Part shown: positions 18,480 through 59,390 of the stretch, piece by piece
How positions within the stretch are numbered: position 1 is the first letter of the stretch
Layout of the letters: the number at the start of each line of letters is the position of its first letter
Source of the DNA: an uncultured Bacilli bacterium
GTDB taxonomy: Bacteria; Bacillota_I; Bacilli_A; RF39; UBA660
NCBI GenBank assembly: GCA_934168005.1
Contig: CAKPMN010000003.1
Span: 1,100 to 65,099 of the forward strand
Length of the DNA stretch: 64,000 nucleotides
Direction: 5' to 3'
Position numbers and translations under genes: made by a program
Notes under the pieces: model-generated
What the model saw: only the letters and a program-made list of their open reading frames with translations
Databases searched by the model: none
What the model was told of the DNA's origin: nothing

Positions 18480-18565
18480 GCCAGCCTGGCGGAATGGTAG
18501 ACGCAGCAGACTCAAAATCTGCCGGTAGCAATACTGTGAGGGTTCAAGTCCCTTGGCTGGTACCA
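18480..18565 (+). tRNA. tRNA-Leu (anticodon CAA), encoded CCA
   Basis: Acceptor GCCAGCC/GGCTGGT, anticodon stem GCAGA/TCTGC with loop CTCAAAA, a long variable arm, TPsiC GGTTCAAGTCC and 3' ACCA. Confidence 0.9.
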
Positions 18566-21374: not shown

Positions 21375-21728
21375 TAATATTTTGACAAACGCTGCATTTT
21401 TTATAATGTAGAGGAAAGTCCATGCTCGCACTGTCTGAGATGATAGTAGTGTTCGTGCTTAGGGAAAAAATAACCTAAGGTAAGTTTTACTTAACGGCTT
21501 CGAAATAACCTAAGTCTTTTGATATGGTTAGAGTAGATATAAAAGTGCCATAGTGACGAATAAGACAGAAATGTTGGAAATGGAACGCGGTAAACCCCAC
21601 GAGCGAGAAACCCAAATTTTGGTAGGGGAGCTTAAACGAAGGAATCAAACGGAGTTTAGGAAGGGAAACCTTAGATAAATGTTTGTCGCCTGGTAACAGG
21701 AACGGAACATGGCTTATAAAATATTATT
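21373..21728 (+). ncRNA. rnpB: RNase P RNA (Firmicute type B)
   Basis: Contains GAGGAAAGTCCATGCTCGCAC, AGTGCCATAGTGACGAA, GGAACGCGGTAAACCCCACGAGCGAGAAACCCAAATTTTGGTAGGGG and ACATGGCTTA. P1 is AATAATATTTT/AAAATATTATT and P2 is GACAAAC/GTTTGTC. Ends are approximate. Confidence 0.85.
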
Positions 21729-42549: not shown

Positions 42550-44301
42550 ATGGTAAATTTTAAAGAAGATGAACGTTTAAATAAGTTAAATCATAGTTGT
42601 GCACATTTAATGGCTCAAGCTGTTAAACATTTGTGGCCTGATGCTAAATTCTGGGTTGGACCAGTAATTGAAAGTGGTTTTTATTATGATATTGACTTAG
42701 GAGACAAAGTTATTAACGATGATGATATTTTAGCAATCGAAAAAGAAATGAAAAAATTAGCTAAAGATGGTAAGAGAATAGTTCGTAATGAAATAACAAA
42801 AGAAGAAGCATTAGAAATGTTTAAGAATGATCCTTATAAGGTTGATTTAATTGAAAGAATGGATGAAGAAAGTGTTATTTCTACTTATACACAAGGAGAT
42901 TTTACTGATTTATGTCGTGGTCCACATGTTGATAGTGTAAAGGAATGTAAAAACTTTAAACTTGTTAAATTTAGTGGAGCTTATTGGAAAGGAGATTCCT
43001 CTAATAAAGTTTTACAAAGAATTTATGGAGTTTGTTTTCCAACAAAAGAAGAATTAGACGATTATCTAACTGAATTAGAAGAAGCTAAATTAAGAGATCA
43101 TAGAAAGTTAGGAAAAGATCTAGGAATATTTTTATTAAATGATACTGTTGGTAAAGGTTTACCAATGTATTTACCTAATGGTTATATAATTTGGCAAGAG
43201 TGTGAGAACTATATTAAAACTAAGGAAAGAAAACGCGGATATAAACATGTTTTAACTCCACCTTTAGCAAGTACAGAATTATATAAAACTTCAGGTCATT
43301 TGGAACATTATAAGGATTCTATGTTTCCTATTATGGAAGTTGAAGGGGAAGACTATGTATTAAGACCAATGAACTGTCCACATCATATGATGATTTATGG
43401 TAATGATATTCATTCTTACCGTGACTTACCTTTAAGAATAGCAGAAGTAGCTAGAGATTGTAGATATGAAGCAAGTGGTGCATTAAAAGGAATTGAAAGA
43501 ACTAGAGCATTCTGTCAAAATGATTCTCATATATTTTGTACACCAGAACAAATTGAATCTGAATTTAAAGGTGTTGTTGATTTGATACTTGAAGTATATA
43601 AAGAACTTGGTATTAAAAACTTTAGATTTGAATTATCTTTAAGAGATCCTAACGATAAAGTAAAATATCATCCAGATGATGAAATGTGGGATAATGCAGA
43701 AAATAAATTAAGAGATGTTTTGAATGATTTAGGAATTGAATATAAAGAAATGATAGGAGAAGCGGCTTTTTATGGACCTAAGTTAGATGTTCAAGTAAAA
43801 CCAGCTGTTGGAAATGAAATTACTTTATCAACTTGTCAATTAGATTTTTGTTTACCAGCTAAGTTTAATCTTGAATATGTTGATAAAGATGGTTCTAAAA
43901 AAACTCCAGTAGTAATTCATAGAGCTATATTAGGTTCTCTTGATAGATTTATAGCATTTTACTTAGAAGAAACTAAGGGCGCTTTACCTTTATGGATGAG
44001 TCCAACTCAAGTAAATATTATTCCGGTTAATAATGAATATCATTTAGATTACGCAAAATCTATATTTGATGAGTTAAATGATTTAGATATTCGTTGTTCA
44101 TTAGATGATAGAGATGAAAAACTAGGATATAAAATGAGAGAATCTGTTATAAAGAAAAATCCTATTACTTTAATTTTAGGCCAAAAAGAAGTTGATGATA
44201 AAACAATTTCATTTAGAAGATATGGAAGTAATGATACTGAAACTATATCAAAAGATGATTTTGTTAAGTTAGTCTTAGAAGAAATAGCTAAAAAGAAATA
44301 G
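42550..44301 (+). CDS. thrS: Threonine--tRNA ligase lacking the N-terminal TGS domain
   Basis: 583 aa from MVNFKED (RBS AAAGGAGAAG). The editing-domain HSCAHL motif is already at residues 14-19. Class II motifs and an anticodon-binding domain are present. Confidence 0.95.
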   Translation: MVNFKEDERLNKLNHSCAHLMAQAVKHLWPDAKFWVGPVIESGFYYDIDLGDKVINDDDILAIEKEMKKLAKDGKRIVRNEITKEEALEMFKNDPYKVDLIERMDEESVISTYTQGDFTDLCRGPHVDSVKECKNFKLVKFSGAYWKGDSSNKVLQRIYGVCFPTKEELDDYLTELEEAKLRDHRKLGKDLGIFLLNDTVGKGLPMYLPNGYIIWQECENYIKTKERKRGYKHVLTPPLASTELYKTSGHLEHYKDSMFPIMEVEGEDYVLRPMNCPHHMMIYGNDIHSYRDLPLRIAEVARDCRYEASGALKGIERTRAFCQNDSHIFCTPEQIESEFKGVVDLILEVYKELGIKNFRFELSLRDPNDKVKYHPDDEMWDNAENKLRDVLNDLGIEYKEMIGEAAFYGPKLDVQVKPAVGNEITLSTCQLDFCLPAKFNLEYVDKDGSKKTPVVIHRAILGSLDRFIAFYLEETKGALPLWMSPTQVNIIPVNNEYHLDYAKSIFDELNDLDIRCSLDDRDEKLGYKMRESVIKKNPITLILGQKEVDDKTISFRRYGSNDTETISKDDFVKLVLEEIAKKK

Positions 44302-44317
44302 TCTATTTCTTTTTTTT
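44294..44317 (+). terminator. Intrinsic terminator after thrS
   Basis: AGAAATA-GTC-TATTTCT followed by a T-run. Confidence 0.6.
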
Positions 44318-44370
44318 ATAAAAAATTATTGACAATTAATTTTATTGTATGTTATAATCAATTTGCGTCT

Positions 44371-44447
44371 GGGGGATTAGCTCAGCTGGCTAGAGCGCCA
44401 CGTTTGCACCGTGGAGGTCAAGGGTTCGAATCCCTTATCCTCCACCA
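44371..44447 (+). tRNA. tRNA-Ala (anticodon UGC), encoded CCA
   Basis: Acceptor GGGGGAT/ATCCTCC with the G3:U70 identity pair, anticodon stem CCACG/CGTGG with loop TTTGCAC, and GGTTCGAATCC. Confidence 0.9.
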
Positions 44448-44780
44448 GATTGTTTAAAATGCTCAAACTTTTATAGTTTGAGTTTTTTTTGTGCCCAAAT
44501 TTAGAAAAGTTTTTGAATCTAAGCTATAGTATATTAAAATTATAATACATTATTATTGATTTTTGTTTGGGTGCTATGCTTATGCTTAATTTTAAAATTA
44601 AAGTAGTAAGTTTTTCGTGGTATGTTTTATTATTTTTACCTTTAGGCATTCATAGTGCCAAATACGTTCAATTTATTTTGAATGTATTTGGCTTTTTTTT
44701 GTTATGCATTAATTATTTTAATAGGGCTAGAAGTCCTCCTTTTATCAATAAAAATTTTTATGTTGATAAGGAGGATATAG

Positions 44781-45266
44781 ATGGACAAGTTTCCAAAAAG
44801 AAGAAAAGATAGAGATAACCCATATGCTTTAGGGTTTAATACAAATACTAACATGTATACAGTTACTTTTTTAGATTCATTTAAAGTATCACAAACTATT
44901 GAAATAACAAAAGAAATGTATTTAGAATTTAATAAGTTTGAACTAGAAGATTTATCATATATGAATAAATTTGACAGACATATTGAACATTTAGAACAAA
45001 CAGAAGAATCAATTTATAACAGGACTTTAAGATCAAATGATGATATATGTGATTTAATATTCAATGATATTCTATCTAAAGAACTAAAAAAAGAAATAAA
45101 CAATTTACCTGATATTCAAAAAAGAAGAGTTAAAATGTATTTTTTTGATAGTCTTACATTAAAAAAAATTTCTGAAATAGAAGGCTGTTCTATTAGATCT
45201 GTAAAATACAGTGTTGATATAGCTATTGATAAATTAGCAAAAAAATTAAAAAAATATAAATTTTAG
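44781..45266 (+). CDS. Sigma-70 region-4-type HTH regulator (ICE/conjugative-transposon-style sigma-like protein)
   Basis: 161 aa with RBS AAGGAGGA. The C-terminus LPDIQKRRVKMYFFDSLTLKKISEIEGCSIRSVKYSVDIAIDKL is sigma region 4-like. The N-terminus DNPY...FELEDLSYMNKFDRHIEH resembles sigma-like proteins of Firmicute mobile elements. Confidence 0.6.
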   Translation: MDKFPKRRKDRDNPYALGFNTNTNMYTVTFLDSFKVSQTIEITKEMYLEFNKFELEDLSYMNKFDRHIEHLEQTEESIYNRTLRSNDDICDLIFNDILSKELKKEINNLPDIQKRRVKMYFFDSLTLKKISEIEGCSIRSVKYSVDIAIDKLAKKLKKYKF

Positions 45267-45496
45267 ACTTCAAAAAATTGATTTGTGTGAGGAATATGTT
45301 GAAGAAGATAATCTTCTTCGCATATTCCTTATTTTTTTGAGGTAAAGTTCTTTGACAATTAAATAAATTTGATTGAATGTGTTTTTTTACTATGTATGTA
45401 AGTAAACTTATTGCGATAAAAAATATTAAATTATTTTAAATAATATAGTAGAGAATTTGTTGAATTTTATTTTAAATTAATGAATGGAGGTAAAAG

Positions 45497-48400
45497 GTGA
45501 AAGAAATAGAGTTAAAAAGTTTAAGAAAAGAAAGGGAAAAACATTTTTTAAGAGAAGATGGTCTTATTGTTGCTAAAATGTATGATGATGATATTCATTA
45601 TAAAAATGGCAATGAATATATAGAAATTGATAATACTTTAATAAAAGAAAAAGGTTATTATTATAATAAAGATAACTCATATAAGGTATATTTTCCAGAA
45701 GTCAGTGATAAAGTTTTGATGAGAACGGAAAATAATAATCATTATATCTGTTACACATTACAAGATTCTAATATAGTTGAAGCAAAGATAGATGTAAACG
45801 GTTCAAAATTGTATAAAGATATTAAATATATAAATATTTTAAATGGTATTGATTTTGAATATAATGTTATGCCAAAAAAAGTTAAAGAAAATATTATTAT
45901 TAATAACAAGGAATCTGTTGTTGATAGCATTAATTTTTTGCTTGACACAGATTTAGATTTAATTTTAAATAATGATTCTAGCATTGATGCAAAGTATGAT
46001 GGAAAAACAGTTTTTAAAATAGAATCACCTTATATTATTGGAAAAAATGGACAAATGTTAAATAGTGTTTCATATAGACTTATAAAAAATGATACACATT
46101 ATATTTTAAAGTTACTCTTAAATAAAGAAGAAATACTTAAAAGTACTATAGATTATCCTATTATAATTGATCCAACAATAACAAATTATGGAAGTAGCAA
46201 TAGTGTATATGATGTTTATATTTATGAAGGAGACTCAAATTCTGATAGAAATAGTCAATCATTTTTAAAAGTTGGTGTAGAAAAGATAGATAATCAGTAT
46301 ATTACTAATAGAACTTTGTTAAAGTTTGATTTACCTAAAATATCAACTGGAAGCCAAATTATATATGCAGAGTTAACCTTAATAGGGTATCCAATAGTAC
46401 CTTATTCTTATGATAGTTCGATTGTTAATGTACATCAATTAACTCAAGATTGGGATGAGACGACTGCTGATTGGAATTCAATGAATGATAAATTTAATTC
46501 TAGAATAGAAGGATCTTTTGAAAGCTCAAGAAGTGGTGTATCTAGTGATAATAATTTAATAACTTATCTGTCTGGATGTGAACTCACAGGATTGGTAAAA
46601 AAATGGTATACAGATACTCCAAATTATGGCATTATGTTGAAGTTAAACAAAGAAGTTTACACAACTGATGTCATTCCAATGTTTTATTCTAAAAATAATA
46701 CTGTAAATGGAGCAAATCCTAAACCAATTTTAACGATTATTTATAGAAATCAAAATGGTATAGAAAACTATATGAATTATAAAGAGCAATTATTTATGCA
46801 GGGAAAAAGCTATTTGAATACGTATAATGGAAATTTAACTAGTATTTTTGAAATTGGTTCTACTAAAACTGGAAAATTGCCAATAAATTTAAACATTGTA
46901 TATAATACTAATGATGTTATTTTAAATAAAAATTTAGGTTATGGAGTGGGATGTAATTTAAGTTTAAATCAAATCATAAAAGAAACAATTATTGATGAAA
47001 CTAATTATTTGGAGTATATGGACGAAGACGGTACTCTTCATTATTTTAGAATGATTGATAATGTTTATAAAGATGAAGATGGTCTTGATATGATTATAGA
47101 TAAAAAAGACAATGAATGCATTTTAAAAGATAAAAATAATAATAAAATGTATTTTACAAGGAATGATTCTCTTTATTATTTGACTAAGTTAGAAGATGTA
47201 AGTAATAATGTTACAAGTATTATGTATGATGAAAATGTACGTATTAGTAAGATTATTGATCCATCTTTGTTTGAAATTAATTTATCATATAGTGATAATA
47301 AAATTGTTATCACTAGTCCTAAAGATTTAGTTTCTTTAAATTATAATAATAATAGACTTGTTTCTTTAATTACGAAGAGTGGTATAACATCATTTGAATA
47401 TAACAATAATGGACTAATTTCTGGAATTATAGATGAGAATGGGAAGCGAATAGAGTATGAATATTATGATATATTTCCATATAGAGTTAAAAAAGTAAGT
47501 GAAATAGGATTAGAAAATACAAGTGGTAATTATTTTAGTTTAACTTATAATTTTAATTCAACTACGATAATTGATTACAAAAATAATGCCGAAACAATTA
47601 CTTTTAACAATTATGGTAATGTTGCATCTATTACAACTTTAAAAGAACATAATGATATTTTAGATGCTTATGGTAAATGTGTAGAATATGGTGATGATAA
47701 CTATAGTGATGGAAGTACTTATATTCCTACAAAAAATAAATTATTAAATTCTGATATTTCATGTAAATATGTAAAAAATTATTTATCAAATTCTAGTTTT
47801 GAAGAATCTAATATTTTGTTTTCTAAAACTAATGATGTAGTTTTATCAATATCTAGTGATGATTCGGTTTCCGGATTTAAAAGTTTAAAAGCAGTATCGT
47901 CTTCATCTAATCAGATAATTTATCAGGATATTGTAGTTCCAAAGGGCGATTATTATACGTTTAGTTTATATATAAAGAATTCTAGTATGGCAAAAATCTC
48001 TATATGCTATACAGATGAAAATAATCAAATACAGGAAAAACTTGAACAAATTATAATAAACAATTCTTTTGAGAGATATGATACAACTATTTATTATCCA
48101 AATAGTGCAACTAGTGATTTAACAATTAAAGTCATTTTAGAAGACGCTGGACTATATTATATTGATGATATTCAATTGGAAAAGGGCGAGGTAGCAAATT
48201 TTTACAATCTATTAGATAACTCTGATTTTTCAAAAGGTTTAGATGGTTGGCAATTGACGGCAGAAGATAGAGAAACTTTTGAAAGTATTAATACTTCTGA
48301 TATTTTTTCTAAAGTAATTTTAGAAAAAGGAATAACAGCCTTAAAAATAGATATGAATCCAGCAAATTCTACAAGTATAGCTAAAACATTTAATGTAAAA

Positions 48401-51400
48401 GGAAAGGCAGGAGATAAATATGCTATTTCATTTTGGTACAAAAATGAAGGTTATCCAGCTTATGATACGGAAGGGTCACCTATTTCAAATAACGTTATTA
48501 TAAGTTTTTATTATTCAGATAATGAAAATGGGCATGGAATAGCTCCTTCAAAAGGATTTAATCCTAATGAAAATGAATGGCAATATTTTGTGACTAATTT
48601 TCAATCAGAACAAGATTTTGAATCTATGACTTTAAATTTTTTTCAATATAATAATGCTAATGCTTTATATATTACAAATATTTGTTTATTTAAAGATGTT
48701 AGAAATATAAATTATGAATACGATGATGCAGGAAATTTGACAAGTGTAAATGATTTAACAAATAAAACTACTTCATTTGATCATAATAGCAATAATGAGC
48801 TTGTTAAGATGACGGACCCTAAAGGGAATAATTTAACTTATGAATATAATAGAGATATAACTAGTCAAGTTATAAATGGTATTAGTGAGACAGGAATTTT
48901 AAATAAATTTTTTTATGATGTAAATAATAATCCTATTCGTAACACAATTTCTAAATTAGATTCTTCAAATACAACTAAAAAAAAGTATTATAAAATTAAA
49001 ATATATGGGACAAATAAATATATCAGATGTACTCCGACAGGTATTGTAATTACTGAAGATGATTCACCTCTTAATAAATGGCGTACTAAAGAGGAAAAAG
49101 AATGGGAAAAATTAAGCCATTGTGTATTAGAGAGTTTGTATTTGAATGCAGATGATAATCATGCATTTTTAAGTGGATTATATTGCTATATAAATTTTCA
49201 TCCAAATAGTGATCATACTTATTTAATGGAAATATCAAATATTGGATTGTATTTAAAGTTTGATGGTACAAATATTGTTGTTTCTCAATTAGAAGATAAT
49301 ATAGATCCCTTTAAATTCTATATAGAAACATATGATGATCTATTTATTGAAAATGATGCTACATATTCTGCAAGTGGAAAAGTAATTACTAGTACAAAAG
49401 ATTCTCTTCTTCATAAAACAATTTATAATATAGATGAAGAGACTGGACTTACTAATTCCATTACTGATCCAAATGGAACAGTAACTTCATATACATACAA
49501 TGATAAAGATGAATTAGTTTCAATTACAATGAAAGATAAATCTGTAACATATTCATATAATAATCAAAATTTACTTGATAAAATTAATCAAGGAGCAAAA
49601 GAATATGCATTTGTTTATGATAATTTCTTTAATACTAAACAGATAAAATTAAATAATATTGTTTTAGTAACAAATAATTATGAAGAAAATAATGGTAATC
49701 TATCTTCTAGTACATATGGTAATAATCAAGCAATCTCATTTGAGTATGATAATTTCGATAGACTTATTAAAAAAGTAAAATCTGACGATATTTATCAATA
49801 TAAATATGACAGTAATGGGTCATTAACGAAGGTATTATCTAATAATGATATTATTAAATATACATATGATATGGCTAAAAGAGTTAGAGAATATAGATGC
49901 AATGATTTTAGAGTCAAGTATACATATGATTCAAATGGCAACGTAGTTTTAAAAAAATATATTTTAAACGCAATAGAACATGAAATAGAACATACTTTAA
50001 ATGATGAAGATGAAGTAATTAAAACTATGTTTGATAGTTCAGAACTTAACTATAAATATGATGATTTAGAACGATTAAAATCTATTTCAGGAATTATAGA
50101 TGAAGAATATTCTTATGTAACAAATGGAAAAAGAACATCTATGCTAATAAAAACAAATGGAAATTATTCATATATCTATAATCGTTTAAATAATATAACT
50201 CATATTTATAACGATGGTGTATTGGAACATAGATATTATTATGATGAATATTCACAACTTATTAAAGAACATGATTATATACAAAATCAAACTATAACTT
50301 ATACATATAATAGTTCAGGTAACTTATTATCTAAAAAAATATATGTGTTAAATACAACAGCTTTAATTAATGAAAATACATATGAATACACAAATACTAA
50401 TTGGGAAGATCAATTAACTAAATTTAATAATACAGCCATTACATATGATGAAATAGGCAATCCATTAACAATTGGTGATACACATCTAACATGGATTAAT
50501 GGTAGACAACTAAATAAATATCAAGATTCTGATTATACAATCAATTATAAATATAATGATAATGGGATTAGAACTAAAAAAATAGTTAACAACGTTGAAG
50601 TAAATTATCATTTAGAAGGATCTAAAATAATTTTTGAACAACGTGGTGATAATGTGTTATACTATATGTATAGTGAAGCTGATGAGCTAATAGGATTTGA
50701 ATATAATAGTATACCTTACTATTATTTGAAAAATAATCAAAATGATATTATAGGAATAATTGATGCCAATAAAAATGTATTAGCAAAATATACATACGAT
50801 TCTTGGGGAAAAATTATTTCTATAAAAGATAATAATAATACTGAAATAACATCAAATACTCACATAGCAAATATAAACTCATTTAGATATAGAAGTTATT
50901 ACTATGATTCAGAAACTAAACTATATTATTTAAATAGTAGATATTATAATCCAGAATGGGGAAGATTTATAAATGCAGATGGAACAATAGGAGCAAATGA
51001 AGATATCTTATCTTATAACTTATATATTTATGTAAGTAATAATCCAGTTAATAATGTTGATATAGATGGACATTTTGCATTAACAATGTTTTCTAATATG
51101 ATATATACAGCAATTGTGGTAGTAACAGCGATAGTGGTTAGTAAAACTATAAGCAATACTTTATCTGGTACAAGCTTAGCTTTTCCGACGCGAAAACGAC
51201 TTGAAATGCCAGATTTGACAAAGGTCAAATCTAAAGCTGAAGCCAAATCAAAAACAAAATCTAAGGTTACTTCTAAAGTTGCCGCTGTTTCAAAAGCTAA
51301 AGAAGATGTTACTAAGAAAGATGTAACTAAACCTTGTACGCGTGCTAAATTAGTAAAAAATGATGTTAAAAGATATGGCGAAAGACTTAGTGTTGAAGAG

Positions 51401-51592
51401 ACAGCTAATATTGTTATGAGAGGGAATGATGTAATGTGTGATACCGAACTTGATGTTTTAGCAGTTGGAGTTAGTCTTCCTTTTGGATTTACTAAAAATA
51501 GTGCTGAAAAACATGGAGAAAGTGGCACATATTATTATCATTATCATCCAGTAGGAGTCTCAAGTCGTCCACATATTTGGTTTTATAGTTAA
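45497..51592 (+). CDS. Rhs/YD-repeat polymorphic toxin (2031 aa)
   Basis: GTG start after GGAGG.
- N-terminal DNRLRE-like domain (NRTLLKFDL...).
- Two CBM-like modules at about residues 745-1035.
- Many YD repeats (YEYDDAGNLTSV, YTYNDKDELVSI, YKYDSNGSLTKV, YTYDSWGKIISI).
- Rhs core FRYRSYYYDSETKLYYLNSRYYNPEWGRFINAD.
- Cleavage-type motif NPVNNVDIDGH.
- A roughly 172-aa C-terminal tip. Confidence 0.9.
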   Translation: MKEIELKSLRKEREKHFLREDGLIVAKMYDDDIHYKNGNEYIEIDNTLIKEKGYYYNKDNSYKVYFPEVSDKVLMRTENNNHYICYTLQDSNIVEAKIDVNGSKLYKDIKYINILNGIDFEYNVMPKKVKENIIINNKESVVDSINFLLDTDLDLILNNDSSIDAKYDGKTVFKIESPYIIGKNGQMLNSVSYRLIKNDTHYILKLLLNKEEILKSTIDYPIIIDPTITNYGSSNSVYDVYIYEGDSNSDRNSQSFLKVGVEKIDNQYITNRTLLKFDLPKISTGSQIIYAELTLIGYPIVPYSYDSSIVNVHQLTQDWDETTADWNSMNDKFNSRIEGSFESSRSGVSSDNNLITYLSGCELTGLVKKWYTDTPNYGIMLKLNKEVYTTDVIPMFYSKNNTVNGANPKPILTIIYRNQNGIENYMNYKEQLFMQGKSYLNTYNGNLTSIFEIGSTKTGKLPINLNIVYNTNDVILNKNLGYGVGCNLSLNQIIKETIIDETNYLEYMDEDGTLHYFRMIDNVYKDEDGLDMIIDKKDNECILKDKNNNKMYFTRNDSLYYLTKLEDVSNNVTSIMYDENVRISKIIDPSLFEINLSYSDNKIVITSPKDLVSLNYNNNRLVSLITKSGITSFEYNNNGLISGIIDENGKRIEYEYYDIFPYRVKKVSEIGLENTSGNYFSLTYNFNSTTIIDYKNNAETITFNNYGNVASITTLKEHNDILDAYGKCVEYGDDNYSDGSTYIPTKNKLLNSDISCKYVKNYLSNSSFEESNILFSKTNDVVLSISSDDSVSGFKSLKAVSSSSNQIIYQDIVVPKGDYYTFSLYIKNSSMAKISICYTDENNQIQEKLEQIIINNSFERYDTTIYYPNSATSDLTIKVILEDAGLYYIDDIQLEKGEVANFYNLLDNSDFSKGLDGWQLTAEDRETFESINTSDIFSKVILEKGITALKIDMNPANSTSIAKTFNVKGKAGDKYAISFWYKNEGYPAYDTEGSPISNNVIISFYYSDNENGHGIAPSKGFNPNENEWQYFVTNFQSEQDFESMTLNFFQYNNANALYITNICLFKDVRNINYEYDDAGNLTSVNDLTNKTTSFDHNSNNELVKMTDPKGNNLTYEYNRDITSQVINGISETGILNKFFYDVNNNPIRNTISKLDSSNTTKKKYYKIKIYGTNKYIRCTPTGIVITEDDSPLNKWRTKEEKEWEKLSHCVLESLYLNADDNHAFLSGLYCYINFHPNSDHTYLMEISNIGLYLKFDGTNIVVSQLEDNIDPFKFYIETYDDLFIENDATYSASGKVITSTKDSLLHKTIYNIDEETGLTNSITDPNGTVTSYTYNDKDELVSITMKDKSVTYSYNNQNLLDKINQGAKEYAFVYDNFFNTKQIKLNNIVLVTNNYEENNGNLSSSTYGNNQAISFEYDNFDRLIKKVKSDDIYQYKYDSNGSLTKVLSNNDIIKYTYDMAKRVREYRCNDFRVKYTYDSNGNVVLKKYILNAIEHEIEHTLNDEDEVIKTMFDSSELNYKYDDLERLKSISGIIDEEYSYVTNGKRTSMLIKTNGNYSYIYNRLNNITHIYNDGVLEHRYYYDEYSQLIKEHDYIQNQTITYTYNSSGNLLSKKIYVLNTTALINENTYEYTNTNWEDQLTKFNNTAITYDEIGNPLTIGDTHLTWINGRQLNKYQDSDYTINYKYNDNGIRTKKIVNNVEVNYHLEGSKIIFEQRGDNVLYYMYSEADELIGFEYNSIPYYYLKNNQNDIIGIIDANKNVLAKYTYDSWGKIISIKDNNNTEITSNTHIANINSFRYRSYYYDSETKLYYLNSRYYNPEWGRFINADGTIGANEDILSYNLYIYVSNNPVNNVDIDGHFALTMFSNMIYTAIVVVTAIVVSKTISNTLSGTSLAFPTRKRLEMPDLTKVKSKAEAKSKTKSKVTSKVAAVSKAKEDVTKKDVTKPCTRAKLVKNDVKRYGERLSVEETANIVMRGNDVMCDTELDVLAVGVSLPFGFTKNSAEKHGESGTYYYHYHPVGVSSRPHIWFYS
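50767..51456 (+). repeat. Upstream homology arm, copy 1 (3' Rhs core plus proximal toxin region)
   Basis: 690 nt matching 52708-53397 with only 3 substitutions by direct comparison (offset 1941). Confidence 0.95.
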
Positions 51593-51608
51593 TAGAGGAG
51601 AAAAAAAT

Positions 51609-52328
51609 ATGTTAGTGAAAAATATATCTGTTAATAGCTTTATTTTGCTATTAAAATATGCATTTGAGACATGCAACTATATCTCATTATTTGAACATTA
51701 TTATAATGATCGTTGTGGAGAAGATATTAGAAATTTAATACTAGAAGAAGAAAATTTAAACAGGAAAGAATTTTTTCAGAAATATGTATTTGATGATATA
51801 TCTAATATATGTAAATTATATGAAGATAATAAAAAAATTCAATTTCTTGTGAAACCGTTTTATGAACAAATTAGTTTTAAAGAATTTTCAATAGAGAAAG
51901 TTACAAATATGTATATAAAAAGAGCTATTGAGAATTATTTTTATAAATATAATATAAGAAACTTTTTGTATCAGCATTTTTGTTGCATTAAATGTGTGAA
52001 AAATGTATACCCTGAGCTTACAAGAGGAATTGAGCCATATGGAATAACTTATTATTTAAGTATTGATAATAAAACGAAAAATTCGTTATTAGATAAAAAA
52101 AATATCTGGGATTGGAAATATCCATACAGCTTAGAAGATCTTTGCTTTTTAAGAAATAATCAATATTGGCTTAAATCCGTTGCTCATGAAAAAATATGCA
52201 ATATTTATTGTGAATCAGAGGAAGAATATGAATATTTGAAGTCTATAGGTATTGAATTTTATGATAATAAATACGTACCTATATCTGAAATAGAGAAAAA
52301 GGAATTGATAGTAGCTGGATTAAATTAA
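51609..52328 (+). CDS. Candidate cognate immunity protein 1 (239 aa)
   Basis: Starts 17 nt after the rhs stop with RBS GAGGAG. It is a cytoplasmic-looking paralog of 53555-54274. Confidence 0.6.
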   Translation: MLVKNISVNSFILLLKYAFETCNYISLFEHYYNDRCGEDIRNLILEEENLNRKEFFQKYVFDDISNICKLYEDNKKIQFLVKPFYEQISFKEFSIEKVTNMYIKRAIENYFYKYNIRNFLYQHFCCIKCVKNVYPELTRGIEPYGITYYLSIDNKTKNSLLDKKNIWDWKYPYSLEDLCFLRNNQYWLKSVAHEKICNIYCESEEEYEYLKSIGIEFYDNKYVPISEIEKKELIVAGLN

Positions 52329-52348
52329 TAGTTACTTTGGAAAATATA
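52146..52348 (+). repeat. Downstream homology arm, copy 1 (3' end of immunity gene 1 plus its trailer)
   Basis: About 200 nt matching 54092-54294, with roughly a dozen substitutions and one indel by eye. Confidence 0.85.
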
Positions 52349-52350
52349 GT

Positions 52351-52707
52351 ATGATCAAGAAAATTAATGTAAATTGGAAAAGAATAGTATTATTGATTAT
52401 AATCATACTTATAGCTTATCTTTTGTTTTTTAGTAAATTAAGAATGATGTGGTTACCTGAAGGAGAATATATTGAGAGTGTTACTTCTCCTAATGGTAAA
52501 TATACGTTAAGGTCTTATAAATATAGTGGTGGAGCTACAACAGATTGGCATTTAAGAGTAGAAGTAGTGGAAAATGAAACTAGAAAATCATTTAATATAT
52601 ATTATAAGTATCATGAATACGATTCAGATATGAAATGGATTGATAATGAAAATGTTATAATTAATGATCGGAAAATGAACATTCATAAAGACTATGTTTT
52701 AGAATGA
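52351..52707 (+). CDS. DUF5412-like small membrane-anchored protein
   Basis: 118 aa. Has an N-terminal TM helix, then LPEGEYIESVTSPNGKYTLRSYKYSGGATT...KWIDNENVIIN, which resembles DUF5412 proteins of Firmicutes. Confidence 0.55.
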   Translation: MIKKINVNWKRIVLLIIIILIAYLLFFSKLRMMWLPEGEYIESVTSPNGKYTLRSYKYSGGATTDWHLRVEVVENETRKSFNIYYKYHEYDSDMKWIDNENVIINDRKMNIHKDYVLE

Positions 52708-53539
52708 CAATAAAGATGTATTAGCAAACTATACATACGATTCTTGGGGAAAAATTATTTCTATAAAAGATAATAATAATACTGAAATAACATCAAATAC
52801 TCACATAGCAAATATAAACTCATTTAGATATAGAAGTTATTACTATGATTCAGAAACTAAACTATATTATTTAAATAGTAGATATTATAATCCAGAATGG
52901 GGAAGATTTATAAATGCAGATGGAACAATAGGAGCAAATGAAGATATCTTATCTTATAACTTATATATTTATGTAAGTAATAATCCAGTTAATAATGTTG
53001 ATATAGATGGACATTTTGCATTAACAATGTTTTCTAATATGATATATACAGCAATTGTGGTAGTAACAGCGATAGTGGTTAGTAAAACTATAAGCAATAC
53101 TTTATCTGGTACAAGCTTAGCTTTTCCGACGCGAAAACGACTTGAAATGCCAGATTTGACAAAGGTCAAATCTAAAGCTGAAGCCAAATCAAAAACAAAA
53201 TCTAAGGTTACTTCTAAAGTTGCCGCTGTTTCAAAAGCTAAAGAAGATGTTACTAAGAAAGATGTAACTAAACCTTGTACGCGTGCTAAATTAGTAAAAA
53301 ATGATGTTAAAAGATATGGCGAAAGACTTAGTGTTGAAGAGACAGCTAATATTGTTATGAGAGGGAATGATGTAATGTGTGATACTGAACTTGATGTATG
53401 GCTTGTTGGAAATGAAATAAATGGTGGCATATACTATGACGGTAAACATAGGGAATTACCTAATTACTATTTTCATTATCATCCAAATATTTGGAACTCT
53501 TCGAATGGTGAACATCCACACATATGGTATTTAAATTAG
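52703..53539 (+). pseudogene. Orphan rhs 3' fragment with an alternative toxin tip (no start codon or RBS of its own)
   Basis: The frame opens right after a TAG at 52700-52702 and encodes ..YTYDSWGKIISI...RYYNPEWGRFINAD...DIDGH plus the toxin region. The last ~45 aa differ from the main gene. The first in-frame ATG (53027) has no RBS. Confidence 0.75.
52708..53397 (+). repeat. Upstream homology arm, copy 2
   Basis: See 50767-51456. Confidence 0.95.
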
Positions 53540-53554
53540 AAAAGAGATGAAAAA

Positions 53555-54274
53555 ATGCTTGTAAAAAATTTTTCTAAAGATAGTTTTATTAAATTGAAAA
53601 AATATGCTATTGACAGAAGCAATTATATTTCTTTCTTTATTCAATATAACCGTTGTCATGAGTGTAGTGCTTCGATAATTCAAACTATTCTTGAAATAGA
53701 AAAAAATGATGAAAACTCATTTTTTAAAACCTATACAATAGATGACATTTCAAATTTGAGTGAAAAATATAAGAATATTTATAAGATTAAAAAAATAGTT
53801 GAAATGTATTTGAAAAATTATATTAAAAATGATATTTGCATTGAAAAAGTTACTGAAAGTTACATCTATATAGCACTTACTGACGCATTTTATAAGTATT
53901 ATTCAAAAGAAAATTTAAAAAATTATATGAGTGAGTTAGTATATGAAGAAAAACAATTTTATGGGCAAAATAATTATTTGTTTGGAATAACTTATTATTT
54001 CAAGAATACAGGAAAAGTAAAGAAAGATATTTTGGAAAGTGATAAGATTTTATGGGAATGGATTTTTCCGTATTGTCAGGAAAATATTTGTTTTTTAAGA
54101 AATAATCAATATTGGCTTAAATCAGTTGCTCATGAAAAAATATGCAATATTTATTGCGAATCAGAGGAAGAATATGAATATCTGAAGTCTATAGGTATTG
54201 AATTTTATGAAGATAAATATGTACCTATATCTGAAATAGAGAGAAAAGAATTGATGGTAGCTGGATTAGATTAA
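53555..54274 (+). CDS. Candidate immunity protein 2, paired with the orphan tip (239 aa)
   Basis: Same length and spacing as immunity 1. The N-terminal ~175 aa are diverged, and the last ~65 aa are nearly identical (CFLRNNQYWLKSVAHEKICNIYCESEEEYEYLKSIGIEFY). Confidence 0.6.
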   Translation: MLVKNFSKDSFIKLKKYAIDRSNYISFFIQYNRCHECSASIIQTILEIEKNDENSFFKTYTIDDISNLSEKYKNIYKIKKIVEMYLKNYIKNDICIEKVTESYIYIALTDAFYKYYSKENLKNYMSELVYEEKQFYGQNNYLFGITYYFKNTGKVKKDILESDKILWEWIFPYCQENICFLRNNQYWLKSVAHEKICNIYCESEEEYEYLKSIGIEFYEDKYVPISEIERKELMVAGLD

Positions 54275-54294
54275 TAGTTACTTAGAAAAATATA
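54092..54294 (+). repeat. Downstream homology arm, copy 2
   Basis: See 52146-52348. Confidence 0.85.
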
Positions 54295-54388
54295 ATATAA
54301 AAATAATTATATGTTAAAATTATTTTGTAAAACATTCTGAAGAGATTCTAAAAAAATAGAATTTCTTTTTATATAGAGGAGAGTTAAA

Positions 54389-54688
54389 ATGGTACAAATT
54401 ATTTTTGAATATTGGTTGGAACTTTTATTAACTTCTTTAACAACAGGAATAATATATATATTTAAACAATATGTTGGTCTAAAAAATGGTGTAAAGGCAA
54501 TGCTTAGAAATGAAATTGTGAGAATATATGAAAATTATTCAAAATTAGGGTATTGCCCTAGTTATATGAAAGAAAATGTAAGCGAAATATATGTAAGTTA
54601 TCATAAATTAAAAGGAAATGGAATGGCTACTTATATGATAAATGAAATTTATAAATTACCAAATGAATTTAAGGAGAGTGATGTATGA
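54389..54688 (+). CDS. Hypothetical single-TM protein, first gene of the lysis cassette
   Basis: 99 aa with an N-terminal hydrophobic helix. Its stop overlaps the start of the holin-like gene (ATGA). Confidence 0.45.
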   Translation: MVQIIFEYWLELLLTSLTTGIIYIFKQYVGLKNGVKAMLRNEIVRIYENYSKLGYCPSYMKENVSEIYVSYHKLKGNGMATYMINEIYKLPNEFKESDV

Positions 54689-54888
54689 AAGAAAAAATAA
54701 TCATCCAATTTTGTGAATTATTAAAAGTAAAATCTATTATTACATTAATAGCCTTTATAGCTTTTTTCTACTTGGCTATTAATTCGAAATTAGACACTGA
54801 TAATTTTATGTTAGTGTTAGGAATGATTACAACTTATTTTTTTAATAAAGATCAAAAAGAAGAGGAGCACCATGAAGAAGGCAATTGA
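54685..54888 (+). CDS. Holin-like protein (67 aa, two TM, charged tail)
   Basis: Two hydrophobic segments (SIITLIAFIAFFYLAI and FMLVLGMITTYFF) plus the tail NKDQKEEEHHEEGN. It overlaps the endolysin start. Confidence 0.6.
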   Translation: MKEKIIIQFCELLKVKSIITLIAFIAFFYLAINSKLDTDNFMLVLGMITTYFFNKDQKEEEHHEEGN

Positions 54889-55729
54889 TATATCTTATTA
54901 TCAAAAAAATGTTGATTATAAAAAAGTAAAAGAATCTGGTATTGAAATGGTAATTCTTAGAGCAGGTTTTACAGGCTATGGAATTAATAAACTAAAAAAT
55001 AAAGATAAGCTATTTGAAGAACATTACAATGGTTTTAAAAATGTAGGTATTCCAATAGGTGTCTATTGGTATTCTTGTGCATATACAGAAGAAGAAGCGG
55101 AAGAAGAAGCGTTAAAAGTTCTAGAAATTGTGAAAAACAAAGAAATTGAACTACCTATATTTATTGATGTTGAAGACAATCATGATATTACAAAATCAGG
55201 TTTAGCAAAGCAAAATCAATATGAACTCAGTCGTAATGAGTTAACTAAAGTAGTTGCAAGATTCTGTGAAATAATAGAAAAAAATGGCTATTATGTTGGA
55301 ATATATGCTAGTACGCATTGGTTAAATAAAAAGCTAGACATGAATATTTTAAAAAGATATGATATTTGGGTAGCTCATTATAATGTAAAGAAACCAACCT
55401 ATAATGGAACTTATGGGATATGGCAATATACATCAAAAGGAAATGTTAGTGGCATAAATGGCAATGTTGATTTGGATTACATATATAAAGCATATCCAGA
55501 TATTATTAGGAATAAAGGGCTTAATAACTTATCACAGAAAAAATATGATAAAAATAATTCAGAAGAAAATATATATTACAAAGTTCAGAAAGGTGACAAC
55601 CTTACCAAAATAGCTAAAAAATATAATATTGATTTAAGAATATTGTATGAAGAAAATAAAAATATTATTGGTAATAATCCTAATTTAATTTATCCGAATC
55701 AAATTTTAAAAATAACAAAAAAATATTAA
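54872..55729 (+). CDS. GH25 muramidase with a C-terminal LysM domain (endolysin-type)
   Basis: 285 aa. GH25 N-terminus AIDISYYQKNVDYKKVKESGIEMVILRAG...IFIDVED, no signal peptide, and LysM YYKVQKGDNLTKIAKKYNIDL...IYPNQILKI. Confidence 0.85.
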   Translation: MKKAIDISYYQKNVDYKKVKESGIEMVILRAGFTGYGINKLKNKDKLFEEHYNGFKNVGIPIGVYWYSCAYTEEEAEEEALKVLEIVKNKEIELPIFIDVEDNHDITKSGLAKQNQYELSRNELTKVVARFCEIIEKNGYYVGIYASTHWLNKKLDMNILKRYDIWVAHYNVKKPTYNGTYGIWQYTSKGNVSGINGNVDLDYIYKAYPDIIRNKGLNNLSQKKYDKNNSEENIYYKVQKGDNLTKIAKKYNIDLRILYEENKNIIGNNPNLIYPNQILKITKKY

Positions 55730-55824
55730 AAATACACTTCAAAAAATGTTTTCTAGTGAGGAATATAGTGAAGAGTTTGTCCTCTTCGTTTGACTAAAAA
55801 AATAATAGAAGGGAGAGAGTATAT

Positions 55825-56481
55825 ATGATAGAAAGTAATTCATCTGATTTTACAATGGATGATATTTATTTTAAAGATGCATTTACTATTGAAAATGATA
55901 AGTTAAATTTAGAAGTAAATGATATAACTGCTGATTCGATAATCTCAAAAAATAATAAATTTAGTTTAGATTCTGAAGGTAATTTAGTGGTAAAAACTAT
56001 TACCCCAACAGATGGTATTGCTAATATATCAGGTTTAGGTAATTTGATATATCCAGTTGGAAGTATATATATTTCAACAAACTCTGTTGATCCATCTGTC
56101 TTATTTGGAGGAATGTGGGAATTAAAGAAGAATCGTTTTCTAATTGGAGCAGGCGATAATTATTCTATTGGTGCAATAGGTGGCGATACTACTTTTAATA
56201 CAAGTTCTTATTCAGGTTTGACAGGTAGTACAGCACTTACAATAAATCAAATTCCAAGTCATCAACATAATATTCAAGGTTATAATAATTCTGGATCATC
56301 AGTTACTTGGACAGATAGAGCTATAAGTTATCAAGCTAATTCAAAAGGTTATAGTTCTGGCATTAGGACTAGTTATGTTGGAGGTAGCGAAGGTCATAAT
56401 CACACTTTAGAGCCTCATCAACATAGTGTGTCTGTTTTGCCTCCTTACCTAGCAGTTAATATTTGGGAAAGAATTAGATAA
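55825..56481 (+). CDS. Phage tail-collar-domain (MdpB/COG4675-like) protein
   Basis: 218 aa. Contains PVGSIYIS...GGMWELKKNRFLIGAG, the HxH motifs SHQHNI and GHNHTLEPHQHSV, and the ending PPYLAVNIWERI. Confidence 0.7.
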   Translation: MIESNSSDFTMDDIYFKDAFTIENDKLNLEVNDITADSIISKNNKFSLDSEGNLVVKTITPTDGIANISGLGNLIYPVGSIYISTNSVDPSVLFGGMWELKKNRFLIGAGDNYSIGAIGGDTTFNTSSYSGLTGSTALTINQIPSHQHNIQGYNNSGSSVTWTDRAISYQANSKGYSSGIRTSYVGGSEGHNHTLEPHQHSVSVLPPYLAVNIWERIR

Positions 56482-56560
56482 TTATTTTTTTAGTACGAAT
56501 AACCCTCGGATTATTTTCCGGGGGTTATTTTGAAAAGTTTTTGCATTAAAAAGAAAGTCA

Positions 56561-57178
56561 TTAGACTTTCTTTAATTTTCCTTCTTTTAGTAGATTCAAT
56601 AATTTTATATTTTGTGTTGCGGTTCCTTTATATGAAGTTATACCATTTTTTAAAGCTATTTTTTTTCTAAATGTATAGCTACTATCAATTTTTAAACTTT
56701 TTAATGCATCTACTAATGAATTTGTGTTTCCTATGTATTTTTTATAATATATATCAGTATTTTTATTAGTATTTTCTTCAAATGAATTACTTAAATAATA
56801 AGTTGGATTGATTCTACTTTTTTCTTTCCATACTTCAAAATGTAGGTGTTTTCCATATGCATTTCCTGAGTCACCCATATATCCTAAAATATCACCTTTT
56901 TTGACTTTTTGATTCTTTTTTACTTTCACATATTCTAAGTGAGCATATAATGTATAATAGTTATTATTATGTTTGATTTTTATAAAATTTCCATATGATT
57001 CATTTCCTTTTGAATTTTTATTATTAGTTTTGCCTGTCTGTATTAATATAACTGTTCCATCACTGTGAGCTGTTATAAAATCAAGAGTGTGGTTTTTACC
57101 TACAATATCAATAGCTTGATGACTTTTAGAATATTTATTTGTAATAATTGCTTCTTTACTTTTTAATACTCTATTCAT
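56561..57178 (-). CDS. M23-family peptidoglycan endopeptidase
   Basis: 205 aa. Contains HQAIDI, YAHL and GDSGNAYGKHLHFEV. No signal peptide. Confidence 0.85.
   Translation of the reverse strand: MNRVLKSKEAIITNKYSKSHQAIDIVGKNHTLDFITAHSDGTVILIQTGKTNNKNSKGNESYGNFIKIKHNNNYYTLYAHLEYVKVKKNQKVKKGDILGYMGDSGNAYGKHLHFEVWKEKSRINPTYYLSNSFEENTNKNTDIYYKKYIGNTNSLVDALKSLKIDSSYTFRKKIALKNGITSYKGTATQNIKLLNLLKEGKLKKV

Positions 57179-59313: not shown

Positions 59314-59390
<77 letters not shown>

Follow-up and report, generated by a model that had tools for sequence, protein, structure and literature searches.

A tandem Rhs toxin/immunity locus of mosaic age with a probably silent orphan toxin end in uncultured gut Bacilli

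Known toxin/immunity systems and the present locus

Orphan modules called cdiA-CT and rhs-CT have been described previously (PMC3150448, Poole et al. 2011). [quoted passage not shown] 2014), for which an intracellular toxin–antitoxin-like role has also been reported (PMC7043789). Effector/immunity modules of the Vibrio cholerae type VI secretion system (T6SS) undergo sequential displacement (PMC5361080, Kirchberger et al. 2017). Among tandem T7SS immunity paralogues, homology blocks at the ends of esaG and tipC genes recombine to yield chimeric genes and copy-number changes, and the variable part is the proposed toxin-binding surface (PMC9484751, Garrett et al. 2022).

[quoted passage not shown] Near-identity between this fragment and the 3′ core of the main gene extends over 694 nt (99.4%), compared with 522 bp (95%) in Salmonella, and recombination in this common stretch, demonstrated experimentally in Salmonella, would place the orphan tip on the delivery part. 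In contrast to Salmonella, the homology runs 383 nt beyond the cleavage motif and ends within the toxin domain, the toxins and immunity proteins are diverged homologues instead of unrelated families, and a second homology block lies at the 3′ end of the immunity gene. The host is also Gram-positive-type, without a T6SS and without a signal peptide, and switching here is a prediction from sequence.

As in Vibrio, new toxin-end/immunity modules may enter by homologous recombination in a conserved 5′ part while old ones are kept downstream as orphans; the Vibrio modules are T6SS-linked, however, mainly orphan immunity genes are kept, and an internal toxin-domain breakpoint is not noted there. As with esaG and tipC, conserved nucleotide blocks border a variable centre in the immunity genes, and strains carry chimeric alleles. 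Those arrays are immunity-only, whereas the exchanged unit here takes in the end of the toxin gene, and the strong block here is 3′ only (219 nt), with a 5′ block of a few codons (MLVKN). The locus belongs to the esaG/tipC mechanism class, not to the esaG or tipC protein families.

Colicins are similar in that the immunity gene varies together with a sub-domain specificity segment, and both are exchangeable via conserved flanks. Divergence in colicin operons sits in the 3′ end of the toxin gene and in the immunity gene, between conserved colicin and lysis-gene sequence, and Riley's work on E-group nuclease colicin operons reportedly places the immunity region under diversifying selection and recombination. 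Colicins differ in being plasmid-borne, in not being Rhs proteins and in belonging to unrelated protein families; a silent orphan toxin end is lacking in them, but orphan immunity genes do exist. Colicin work is cited in PMC9484751 for interface divergence.

An earlier sequence-only reading of this DNA had presented the internal switch point and the two-sided bracketing of the cassette as unusual. Both have precedents (PMC9484751, PMC3967940 and colicin immunity regions), and the concept is already established by Salmonella Rhs orphans, T7SS immunity homology blocks and colicin immunity regions; the locus represents a well-known strategy in uncharacterised protein families. Our interpretation, to which we assign a probability of roughly 80%, is that the locus encodes an Rhs polymorphic toxin and holds two toxin/immunity pairs, one of them expressed and the other a silent orphan, and that the toxin-tip/immunity segment was exchanged by recombination in the conserved DNA flanking it.

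Organization of the locus

The window, meaning the whole 64,000-nt stretch of DNA that was analysed, derives from an uncultured, very AT-rich gut Bacilli host with a G+C content of 26.6%. After the gene for a 2031-aa Rhs toxin come, in this order, an immunity gene, a DUF5412 gene, an orphan toxin end that lacks a start codon and another immunity gene. The genes and related features are as follows.

44781–45266, + strand: gene for a small factor of the sigma-70 family (161 aa), with which the island opens (Pfam Sigma70_r4/r4_2; NCBIfam sigma70-ECF superfamily below cut-off)
45497–51592, + strand: main Rhs toxin gene, 2031 aa (domain matches below)
51059–51073, + strand: DIDGH within PVNNVDIDGH, a putative variant of the PxxxxDPxGL-type Rhs C-terminal autocleavage motif (sequence; end of the TIGR03696 match)
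51074–51303, + strand: pre-toxin module, a hydrophobic helix and Lys-rich linker (common to an unrelated toxin in strain L022)
51609–52328, + strand: immunity gene 1, 239 aa, cytoplasmic, with a GAGGAG ribosome-binding site (RBS); adjoins the toxin domain in more than 20 loci
52351–52707, + strand: DUF5412 gene, 118 aa, with an N-terminal transmembrane (TM) helix
52703–53539, + strand: orphan rhs-CT reading frame, 278 codons open, following TAG at 52700–52702
53555–54274, + strand: immunity gene 2, 239 aa, intact (sequence)
54389–54888, + strand: overlapping pair of small genes encoding 99 and 67 aa, the shorter product being holin-like, with TM segments and a charged tail
54872–55729, + strand: GH25 muramidase with a LysM domain, endolysin type (domain matches)
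55825–56481, + strand: Gp10_C/phage tail-fibre-like protein, last gene before the terminator (domain matches)

The proposed tandem of two units around a DUF5412-like gene was recovered by BLASTN and MAFFT with small coordinate corrections, and the intervening gene product matches Pfam DUF5412 (E 1.1e-28). The window contains two unit copies only. An origin of this tandem structure in mixed-strain assembly is extremely improbable. Short contigs of several samples do end at the arm boundaries, as any repeat that confuses assemblers would cause, but the break positions are exactly those predicted from a true 694-nt repeat. Moreover, the same layout with identical junctions is carried by at least six contigs of 50–200 kb from independent metagenome assemblies, made by different projects with different assemblers, and thus is not an assembly artefact.

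The main Rhs protein consists of a DNRLRE domain, YD/RHS repeats, an Rhs-associated core, a cleavage-type motif, a TM helix, a Lys-rich linker and a C-terminal toxin domain. It matches Pfam RHS_repeat (E 1.6e-28), and an identical database protein carries a TEN_YD-shell match. The Rhs-associated core (TIGR03696, E 1e-19, above cut-off) covers aa 11–103 of the arm translation (50795–51073) and directly precedes the variable C terminus. The sequence PVNNVDIDGH appears to be a PxxxxDxDG-like variant of the putative autoproteolysis motif. In L022, the same pre-toxin module bears an unrelated toxin with DUF5071-type immunity genes. The toxin and immunity roles proposed here for the window's proteins derive entirely from context.

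Neither an N-terminal signal peptide nor a hydrophobic N terminus was found in the main Rhs protein, and its Pfam and NCBIfam matches include no delivery signal (PAAR/VgrG for T6SS, a Sec signal as in WapA, or LXG for T7SS). In place of such a signal, the locus holds the sigma factor, holin-like genes and endolysin; a tRNA-Ala (44371–44447) lies just upstream of the sigma-factor gene, and the PHROG matches of the 67-aa holin-like protein are families of unknown function. The one convincing terminator (56550–56573) follows the Gp10_C gene. A sigma factor, a signal-less Rhs protein, holin-like genes and an endolysin together suggest lysis-type release in a Gram-positive-type cell, of which we found no description for an Rhs toxin. 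In T10SS-like (TcdE/TcdL-like) release, a holin and a peptidoglycan hydrolase are encoded with a signal-less toxin and are needed for its release; the possible counterparts here are the GH25-LysM endolysin and the 67-aa TM protein in a terminator-free block.

Homology arms of different age flank a variable cassette

Aligning both units with BLASTN and MAFFT gave sharp identity breakpoints rather than uniform divergence, as had been anticipated, and divides each unit into the following segments.

50763–51456, + strand: upstream homology arm, copy 1 (BLASTN/MAFFT; dS 0.007)
51329–51589, + strand: toxin domain type 1, an uncharacterised family of about 90 aa (profile; KPCT..RG.RLT..VMCD before the switch and ..YY.HYHP..H.HIW after it)
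51457–52133, + strand: variable cassette 1, comprising the final 44 aa of the toxin, the RBS between the genes and aa 1–175 of immunity protein 1 (MAFFT, dS)
52134–52352, + strand: downstream homology arm, copy 1, the immunity C-terminal domain plus 24 nt past the stop (BLASTN; dS 0.20)
52704–53397, + strand: upstream homology arm, copy 2 (BLASTN/MAFFT)
53398–54079, + strand: variable cassette 2, comprising toxin tip type 2 and roughly aa 1–175 of immunity protein 2 (MAFFT, dS)
54080–54298, + strand: downstream homology arm, copy 2 (BLASTN)

The near-identity of the upstream arms described from sequence is real, but their size of 690 nt and their three substitutions require revision: the arms measure 694 nt with 4 mismatches, all in the first 26 or last 12 nt, and positions 50789–51444 are 100% identical. 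Copy 1 spans the Rhs-associated core, DIDGH, the TM helix, the Lys-rich linker and the N-terminal 43 aa of the toxin domain. The downstream arms exist where they had been placed, with corrected dimensions of 219 nt and 16 mismatches (92.7%) in place of ~200 nt and about a dozen substitutions. This arm ends exactly at the DUF5412 start codon, and ATA occupies that place in unit 2.

The cassettes align with few gaps at about 45–65% identity and thus are diverged homologues, not unrelated DNA. The strong divergence noted earlier therefore stands, and the description of these segments as barely alignable does not. Values of dS are 0.007 for the upstream arm, 1.41 for the toxin tip, 2.2 for the variable part of the immunity gene and 0.20 for the downstream arm, and dN in the variable part is high (0.52–0.65). 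The roughly 200-fold gap in dS between segments indicates that three ages are real and do not just reflect unequal protein constraint.

The two immunity proteins are 50% identical overall, with 38% identity over aa 1–175 and 89% over aa 176–239. Their C-terminal domain, which coincides with the downstream arm, is conserved at the protein level across the whole immunity family. The downstream arm is therefore not purely a recombination handle, and this family-wide conservation accounts for part of it without recombination. The ORF of immunity gene 2 is 100% conserved in 11 contigs.

The switch point lies within the toxin domain, as proposed. A profile search (25 representatives out of 1.84 billion) matched residues 1–90 as a single stretch in the 25 representative proteins, with invariant residues flanking the switch (P, C, A, R, C and V before; Y, H, H, H, I and W after). 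The toxin HMM match is directly upstream of the immunity HMM match in more than 20 loci of gut Bacilli metagenome-assembled genomes (MAGs). Searches of Pfam, PDB sequences and PDB folds gave no match for either the toxin domain or the immunity protein; the immunity fold was modelled with confidence, and the toxin-fold model is poor (pLDDT 40). A switch after VMCD is also present in two other genomes, L038 and L028. The N-terminal halves group by genome (89–100%), and one tip type is common across genomes (77%) as against 42–52% within a genome.

Strain comparison reveals recombination in both conserved parts

L022 is a MAG of the same species whose flank is 99.19% identical to the window, and its cassette is of unit-1 type at 315 of 316 diagnostic sites. 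In its downstream arm, 4 unit-1 sites are followed by 12 unit-2 sites, with the switch between 52178 and 52211, and the sequence then runs on into the unit-2 flank. The probability of such a clean 4/12 partition by chance is 0.001. The reciprocal combination occurs in L061, which joins a unit-2-type cassette to a unit-1-type arm end and DUF5412 start. The among-strain comparison that the sequence-only reading had called for thus reveals that the arrangement is not fixed, and the two chimeras support its view that the cassette is flanked on each side and can be exchanged. Over the history of the species and its relatives, both conserved parts have undergone homologous recombination, and consequently a given cassette type is not tied to one chromosomal slot across strains.

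An old tandem duplication without recombination, shaped by diversifying selection at the interface and purifying selection elsewhere, could draw on the high variable-part dN and on the protein-level conservation of the immunity C-terminal domain and toxin N-terminal half across the family. It is contradicted by the dS profile, in which adjacent segments with sharp boundaries lie some 200-fold apart, and by the clean chimeras of both arm types in L022 and L061; the groupings of N-terminal halves and tips are also incongruent. We consider this explanation highly improbable.

How the upstream arms came to be near-identical has two candidate answers, which are not mutually exclusive. Recent gene conversion is plausible; recent acquisition of the module by homologous recombination would give the same picture. 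For acquisition, which we regard as possible, though less likely than not, a block comprising the core, arm, tip 1, immunity 1, DUF5412 gene and arm start would have entered from a close strain by homologous recombination and pushed the tip-2 module to the orphan position by sequential displacement. It is accepted that orphan arrays arise by such displacement (PMC3150448, PMC5361080). The type-1 downstream arm, DUF5412 gene and arm start (from 50763) also form a unit elsewhere, in L059, L060 and the L061 flank, and the SNP-free stretch of 47.6–55.4 kb in two strains whose flanks differ fits a segment that spread recently. Weak counterevidence is that the central 656 nt of the arms are identical yet the orthologous L022 arm differs at 7 of ~540 sites, that the two L022 arm copies have one private SNP in common, and that the N-terminal half beside the unit-2-like tip of L061 is 82% identical to the window arm, which fits an overwritten orphan arm. 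The case for concerted evolution rests on few sites.

A stronger proposal is that the family has evolved a split-domain specificity cassette, which pairs the toxin domain's C-terminal half with the helical N-terminal region of the immunity protein. This cassette would be exchanged as a matter of routine by way of the toxin's conserved N-terminal half and the immunity protein's conserved C-terminal domain, both between the silent and expressed slots of a single chromosome and between strains. Populations of these gut Bacilli would change toxin specificity at appreciable frequency, in the manner of pilE/pilS gene conversion, and L015 would be a switched cell line. In contig L015 alone is tip 2 attached to the Rhs core, a junction that could equally arise from an assembler running through the 694-nt repeat. 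The identical layout of the long contigs and the SNP-free interval provide no evidence of ongoing switching, and we judge this proposal unlikely.

In our favoured interpretation of one expressed and one silent pair, the two units are mosaics. Their conserved parts, which are young (dS 0.007 and 0.20), comprise the stretch from the end of the Rhs core through the N-terminal half of the toxin domain and, separately, the C-terminal domain of the immunity protein; the anciently diverged part (dS >1.4) is the second half of the toxin domain with the first 175 aa of the immunity protein. The variable cassette probably carries the toxin–immunity recognition surface. Immunity protein 2 would be expressed and guard against neighbours deploying tip 2, and, by analogy with the Salmonella rhs orphan, crossing over in the upstream arms would attach tip 2 to the Rhs shell. 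Intragenomic gene conversion or very recent recombinational acquisition would explain the near-identity of these arms, whose ends probably mark the onset of ancient heterology rather than a dedicated recombination site.

With this locus, the main/orphan Rhs arrangement is seen in uncultured, spore-forming gut Bacilli as well, and recombination breakpoints on either side of a toxin-tip/immunity cassette can be mapped in a clean natural case. The locus also brings to light a small toxin domain that is uncharacterised (invariant P, C, R, C ... Y.H.H ... HIW) and an immunity fold that is modelled with confidence and lacks a PDB match. Short variable loops are the predicted determinants of specificity, and the pair is thus well suited to studying the evolution of toxin–immunity specificity. 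Should recombinants appear within populations, the locus would act as a kin-discrimination switch in the gut.

The orphan toxin end is probably silent

The orphan is a 5′-truncated copy homologous to the 3′ part of the main gene, located downstream of the main pair. It begins at the Rhs-associated core and lacks the delivery region. No ATG, GTG or TTG occurs in its frame before the ATG at 53027, and no Shine–Dalgarno sequence precedes this codon. With the upstream TAG, these observations confirm a second copy without a start codon or RBS; together with the RHS repeats of the main gene and the core domain over the arm, they support the proposed pairing of a main Rhs gene with a silent orphan.

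Alternatively, a 170-aa protein made from ATG 53027 could form an intracellular toxin–antitoxin-like module with immunity protein 2, which we think improbable. Gene callers annotate this ORF in every assembly, and a role of this kind has been reported for the Salmonella orphan (PMC7043789). No terminator was found between the Rhs gene and 56550, and thus the orphan region is probably transcribed. Besides lacking a Shine–Dalgarno sequence, however, the same ATG occurs in the same context inside the main gene, and the 170-aa ORF merely begins at the first Met after the cleavage motif. The point at which the orphan begins also varies by strain, lying at 50903 in L022 and at about 51048 in L060.

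Two tandem units built from segments of different age

The two toxin/immunity units were compared by BLASTN and MAFFT. The alignments confirm the tandem structure claimed in a sequence-only reading of this DNA, with unit 1 comprising the end of the main Rhs toxin gene and immunity gene 1, and unit 2 an orphan toxin end and immunity gene 2. Synonymous (dS) and non-synonymous (dN) divergence was estimated for each segment by the Nei-Gojobori method.

Features of the locus, in window coordinates
45497-51592: main Rhs ORF, 2031 aa, with RHS repeats and a DNRLRE domain
50763-51456 and 52704-53397: upstream arm, 694 nt, 4 mismatches; dS 0.007, dN 0.006
51457-52133 and 53398-54079: middle (variable) segment, few gaps, roughly 45-65% identity; toxin tip dS 1.41, dN 0.65; immunity variable part dS 2.2, dN 0.52
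52134-52352 and 54080-54298: downstream arm, 219 nt, 16 mismatches; dS 0.20, dN 0.046
51329-51589 (tip 1) and 53270-53536 (tip 2): toxin domains of an unannotated family of ~90 aa
52351-52707: DUF5412 gene between the units (DUF5412 match E 1.1e-28), an N-terminal TM helix plus ~90 aa

The near-identity of the upstream arm stands, with the measured values replacing the claimed 690 nt and 3 substitutions, as does the downstream arm, previously put at roughly 200 nt with about a dozen substitutions. The variable segment is indeed divergent, yet it aligns with few gaps and is not, as had been claimed, barely alignable. The segment boundaries are sharp, and the units are not uniformly diverged duplicates. 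All four upstream-arm mismatches are confined to its first 26 and last 12 nt, leaving 50789-51444 identical, and the downstream arm stops right at the DUF5412 start codon (ATG), the equivalent unit-2 site reading ATA. The Nei-Gojobori values differ so strongly by segment that three segment ages are visible at synonymous sites. The locus shows a main/orphan Rhs arrangement with segments of mosaic age. The arm ends probably mark the onset of ancient heterology rather than special sites.

Only two copies of the unit occur in the window. At least six contigs of 50-200 kb, drawn from independent assemblies, carry the tandem arrangement, and short contigs end at the sites predicted by a true 694-nt repeat. 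Inside both arms are long antisense ORFs, at 51028-51528 (-) with 166 aa and at 52969-53430 (-) with 153 aa; they were rejected as genes and probably arise as a by-product of the Lys-rich coding strand. A similar antisense ORF was annotated by a gene caller in L016, a contig from a related species.

The switch point lies inside one toxin domain

The Rhs-associated core (TIGR03696) of the main Rhs ORF spans 50795-51073 and is followed by the motif PVNNVDIDGH, a hydrophobic helix, a Lys-rich linker and the C-terminal domain of ~90 aa. The boundary between pre-toxin and toxin lies at ~51303, where an unrelated toxin begins on the same linker in strain L022. No hydrophobic N-terminal signal was found in the main Rhs protein.

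A profile built from the two tips matched 25 of 1.84 billion representative proteins. Nearly all of these matches cover profile positions 1-90 in one stretch at the C-terminus, many of them behind Rhs core sequence. The switch from upstream arm to cassette falls after toxin-domain residue 43 (VMCDTELDV). In the family alignment, invariant residues flank this position on both sides (P2, C3, A6, R19, C37 and V46 before it; Y68, H71, H73, H82, I83 and W84 after it), which places the switch inside one toxin domain. Together with the single-stretch matches, this bears out the claim of a toxin-internal switch point. Two loops, V46-Y68 and H73-H82, are hypervariable.

The family carries two invariant Cys and three invariant His residues (PC...R...C...Y.H.H...HIW), a pattern that suggests a metal site in the domain. 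Neither the toxin domain nor the immunity protein matched a family in Pfam (E up to 10), NCBIfam, PHROGs or PDB sequences, and an AlphaFold2 model of the toxin domain from a 5-sequence alignment was unusable (pLDDT 40). Tox-REHH (bioRxiv 10.64898/2026.09.22.753552) was considered for the histidine motif; no sequence link to any PDB chain was found, and membership is not claimed.

The same toxin-internal boundary recurs in other genomes, represented by contigs L038 and L028, where again two tandem units have in common an arm that runs ~145-165 nt into the toxin domain and stops directly behind VMCD. The N-terminal halves of the toxin domain cluster by genome, at 89-100% in L038 and in the window, whereas one tip type common to L038 and L028 is 77% identical, against 42-52% within a genome. 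The N-terminal-half alleles are themselves mosaic.

Cassettes and arms have recombined among strains

Strain comparisons support the claim that the cassette is exchangeable through its bracketing arms. Over 9.2 kb of flank, L022 (GCA_977047725.1) and the window share 99.19% identity. The main Rhs gene of L022 encodes another toxin and is accompanied by two DUF5071-type genes. Its orphan starts at the equivalent of 50903, and 315 of 316 diagnostic sites in the orphan cassette are of unit-1 type. Along the downstream arm, unit-1 alleles at the first 4 diagnostic sites give way to unit-2 alleles at the following 12, and the holin-side flank comes next; this places a crossover between 52178 and 52211 (chance of so clean a partition 0.001). 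The reciprocal combination occurs in L061, where an 87-89% allele of unit 2 is joined to a 3' arm of unit-1 type and the DUF5412 start. Slot and cassette type are therefore uncoupled both ways, and these haplotypes show recombination in the downstream arm. Contigs L067, L068 and L070, which start inside that arm, were rejected as recombinant evidence because diagnostic sites there are separated by 32 identical nt, enough to break k=31 graphs in any case. Scanning JGI metagenome contigs for exact patterns of the downstream-arm haplotypes gave 0 matches.

A contig from a Hadza sample, L002, has the same structure as the window, with 0 SNPs across 47591-55392 (7.8 kb, the Rhs 3' half and both units), 29 differing sites in 44025-47590 and 4 in 55393-55555. 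This distribution suggests a recent spread or exchange of the SNP-free stretch.

The block of type-1 arm, DUF5412 gene and arm start also occurs in other contexts in L059 and L060. L060, from a close relative, encodes a third tip type (1427-1852; P0028) in an ORF truncated before HYHP/HIW, of which P0033 is the intact form; the third-tip immunity gene (270 aa) shares the conserved C-terminal domain. In L059, L060 and L061 as in the window, the DUF5412 gene always lies 3' of the type-1 downstream arm, whatever cassette precedes it, and an Rhs-core fragment starts behind it. It might encode a second immunity protein, an accessory protein or a passenger; a literature search gave no paper mentioning the name DUF5412. 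In L016 (114-6100), the main Rhs ORF ends before the toxin domain, apparently by frameshift. The toxin/immunity unit is present twice there in near-identical form, with immunity ORFs frameshifted before the conserved C-terminal domain, and several more orphan modules of other families follow.

Origin of the upstream-arm identity

The 99.4% identity of the upstream arm had been attributed to recent gene conversion. The central 656 nt of the window's two copies are identical, against 7 differences in ~540 sites to L022; the two copies in L022 have one private SNP in common; and the L061 N-terminal half matches the window's arm at only 82% identity. These observations argue weakly for conversion, and the near-identity may instead stem from recent recombinational acquisition of the arm.

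By analogy with Salmonella, in which recombination through a 522-bp arm of 95% identity has been demonstrated (PMC3967940), crossing-over between the two upstream-arm copies would bring tip 2 into use. The 2976-nt contig L015 (sample ERZ28618678) joins window 49608-51456 to 53398-54524, giving core, arm, tip 2 and immunity 2, with unit-1 alleles at 50766, 50774 and 50788 and a unit-2 allele at 51445. It is read equally well as a real deletion recombinant or as an assembler path through the repeat. The same sample also gives a loop contig, L008 (51390-52677).

Behind a TAG at 52700, the orphan reading frame opens at 52703. Within it no ATG, GTG or TTG precedes ATG 53027, which itself has no Shine-Dalgarno sequence, in agreement with the claim that the second copy lacks a start codon and ribosome-binding site. 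No terminator was found between 45320 and 56550, and immunity 2 is probably expressed.

The immunity proteins form a small family, probably cognate to the toxin domain

Both 239-aa ORFs belong to one small family (24 proteins in 5.8 billion). HMM matches to the toxin domain and the immunity protein adjoin, 10-50 nt apart, in more than 20 loci of gut Bacilli MAGs, which supports their being a cognate pair. An AlphaFold2 model of the immunity protein (51609-52328, m8e6d6b023581; pLDDT 91, pTM 0.84) confidently predicts a single fold, in which N- and C-terminal strands would form a beta-sheet and aa 37-122 a helical insert; short family members (170-190 aa) lack this insert. A Foldseek search of the model against the PDB returned nothing below E 0.26, and the predicted fold may be new. 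The variable segment is likely to hold the recognition surface.

Relation to known systems

In the classical picture of nuclease colicins, a variable toxin 3' end and an immunity gene lie between conserved flanks, a layout that the window's cassette resembles. The arrangement has the defining features of the Rhs orphan module (PMC3150448, PMC3967940), and its immunity genes behave like esaG/tipC, in which conserved blocks recombine (PMC9484751). What is new here is the protein families and the host lineage, along with homology that reaches into the toxin domain and an exchange mapped on two sides.

Gene content around the Rhs island

Within 44371-56573, the Rhs island lies immediately behind tRNA-Ala (44371-44447) and has no convincing internal terminator. 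Its first gene encodes a small sigma factor; next come the signal-less Rhs gene, both toxin/immunity units and a pair of small genes, one of which is holin-like, and the series closes with genes for a GH25-LysM endolysin and a Gp10_C tail-fibre-like protein. In L016 the order is Rhs, orphan array, small gene, M23 peptidase and Gp10_C. These gene orders suggest lysis- or holin-dependent release of the Rhs toxin in a Gram-positive-type spore former, for which Tc toxins/T10SS (PMC10847048) and TcdE (PMC3369941) would be analogues. No description of lysis- or holin-dependent Rhs release of this type was found in the literature, and a search for Rhs together with TcdR, UviA or holin returned no paper containing 'Rhs'. 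The TcdR family (UviA/TetR/BotR-type relatives) was considered for the sigma factor and is not supported; tblastn against plasmids gave only two weak Enterococcus matches.

The window also contains RNase P RNA class B (21377-21721), tRNA-Leu(CAA) (18480-18565) and tRNA-Arg(TCT) (59314-59390). The source fits a spore-forming lineage, of Bacilli or Erysipelotrichales-like type, for which gut MAGs are the only known genomes. Sporulation genes in the window are spoVE-like, spoIIIAH and gerM, and the overall G+C content is 26.6%.
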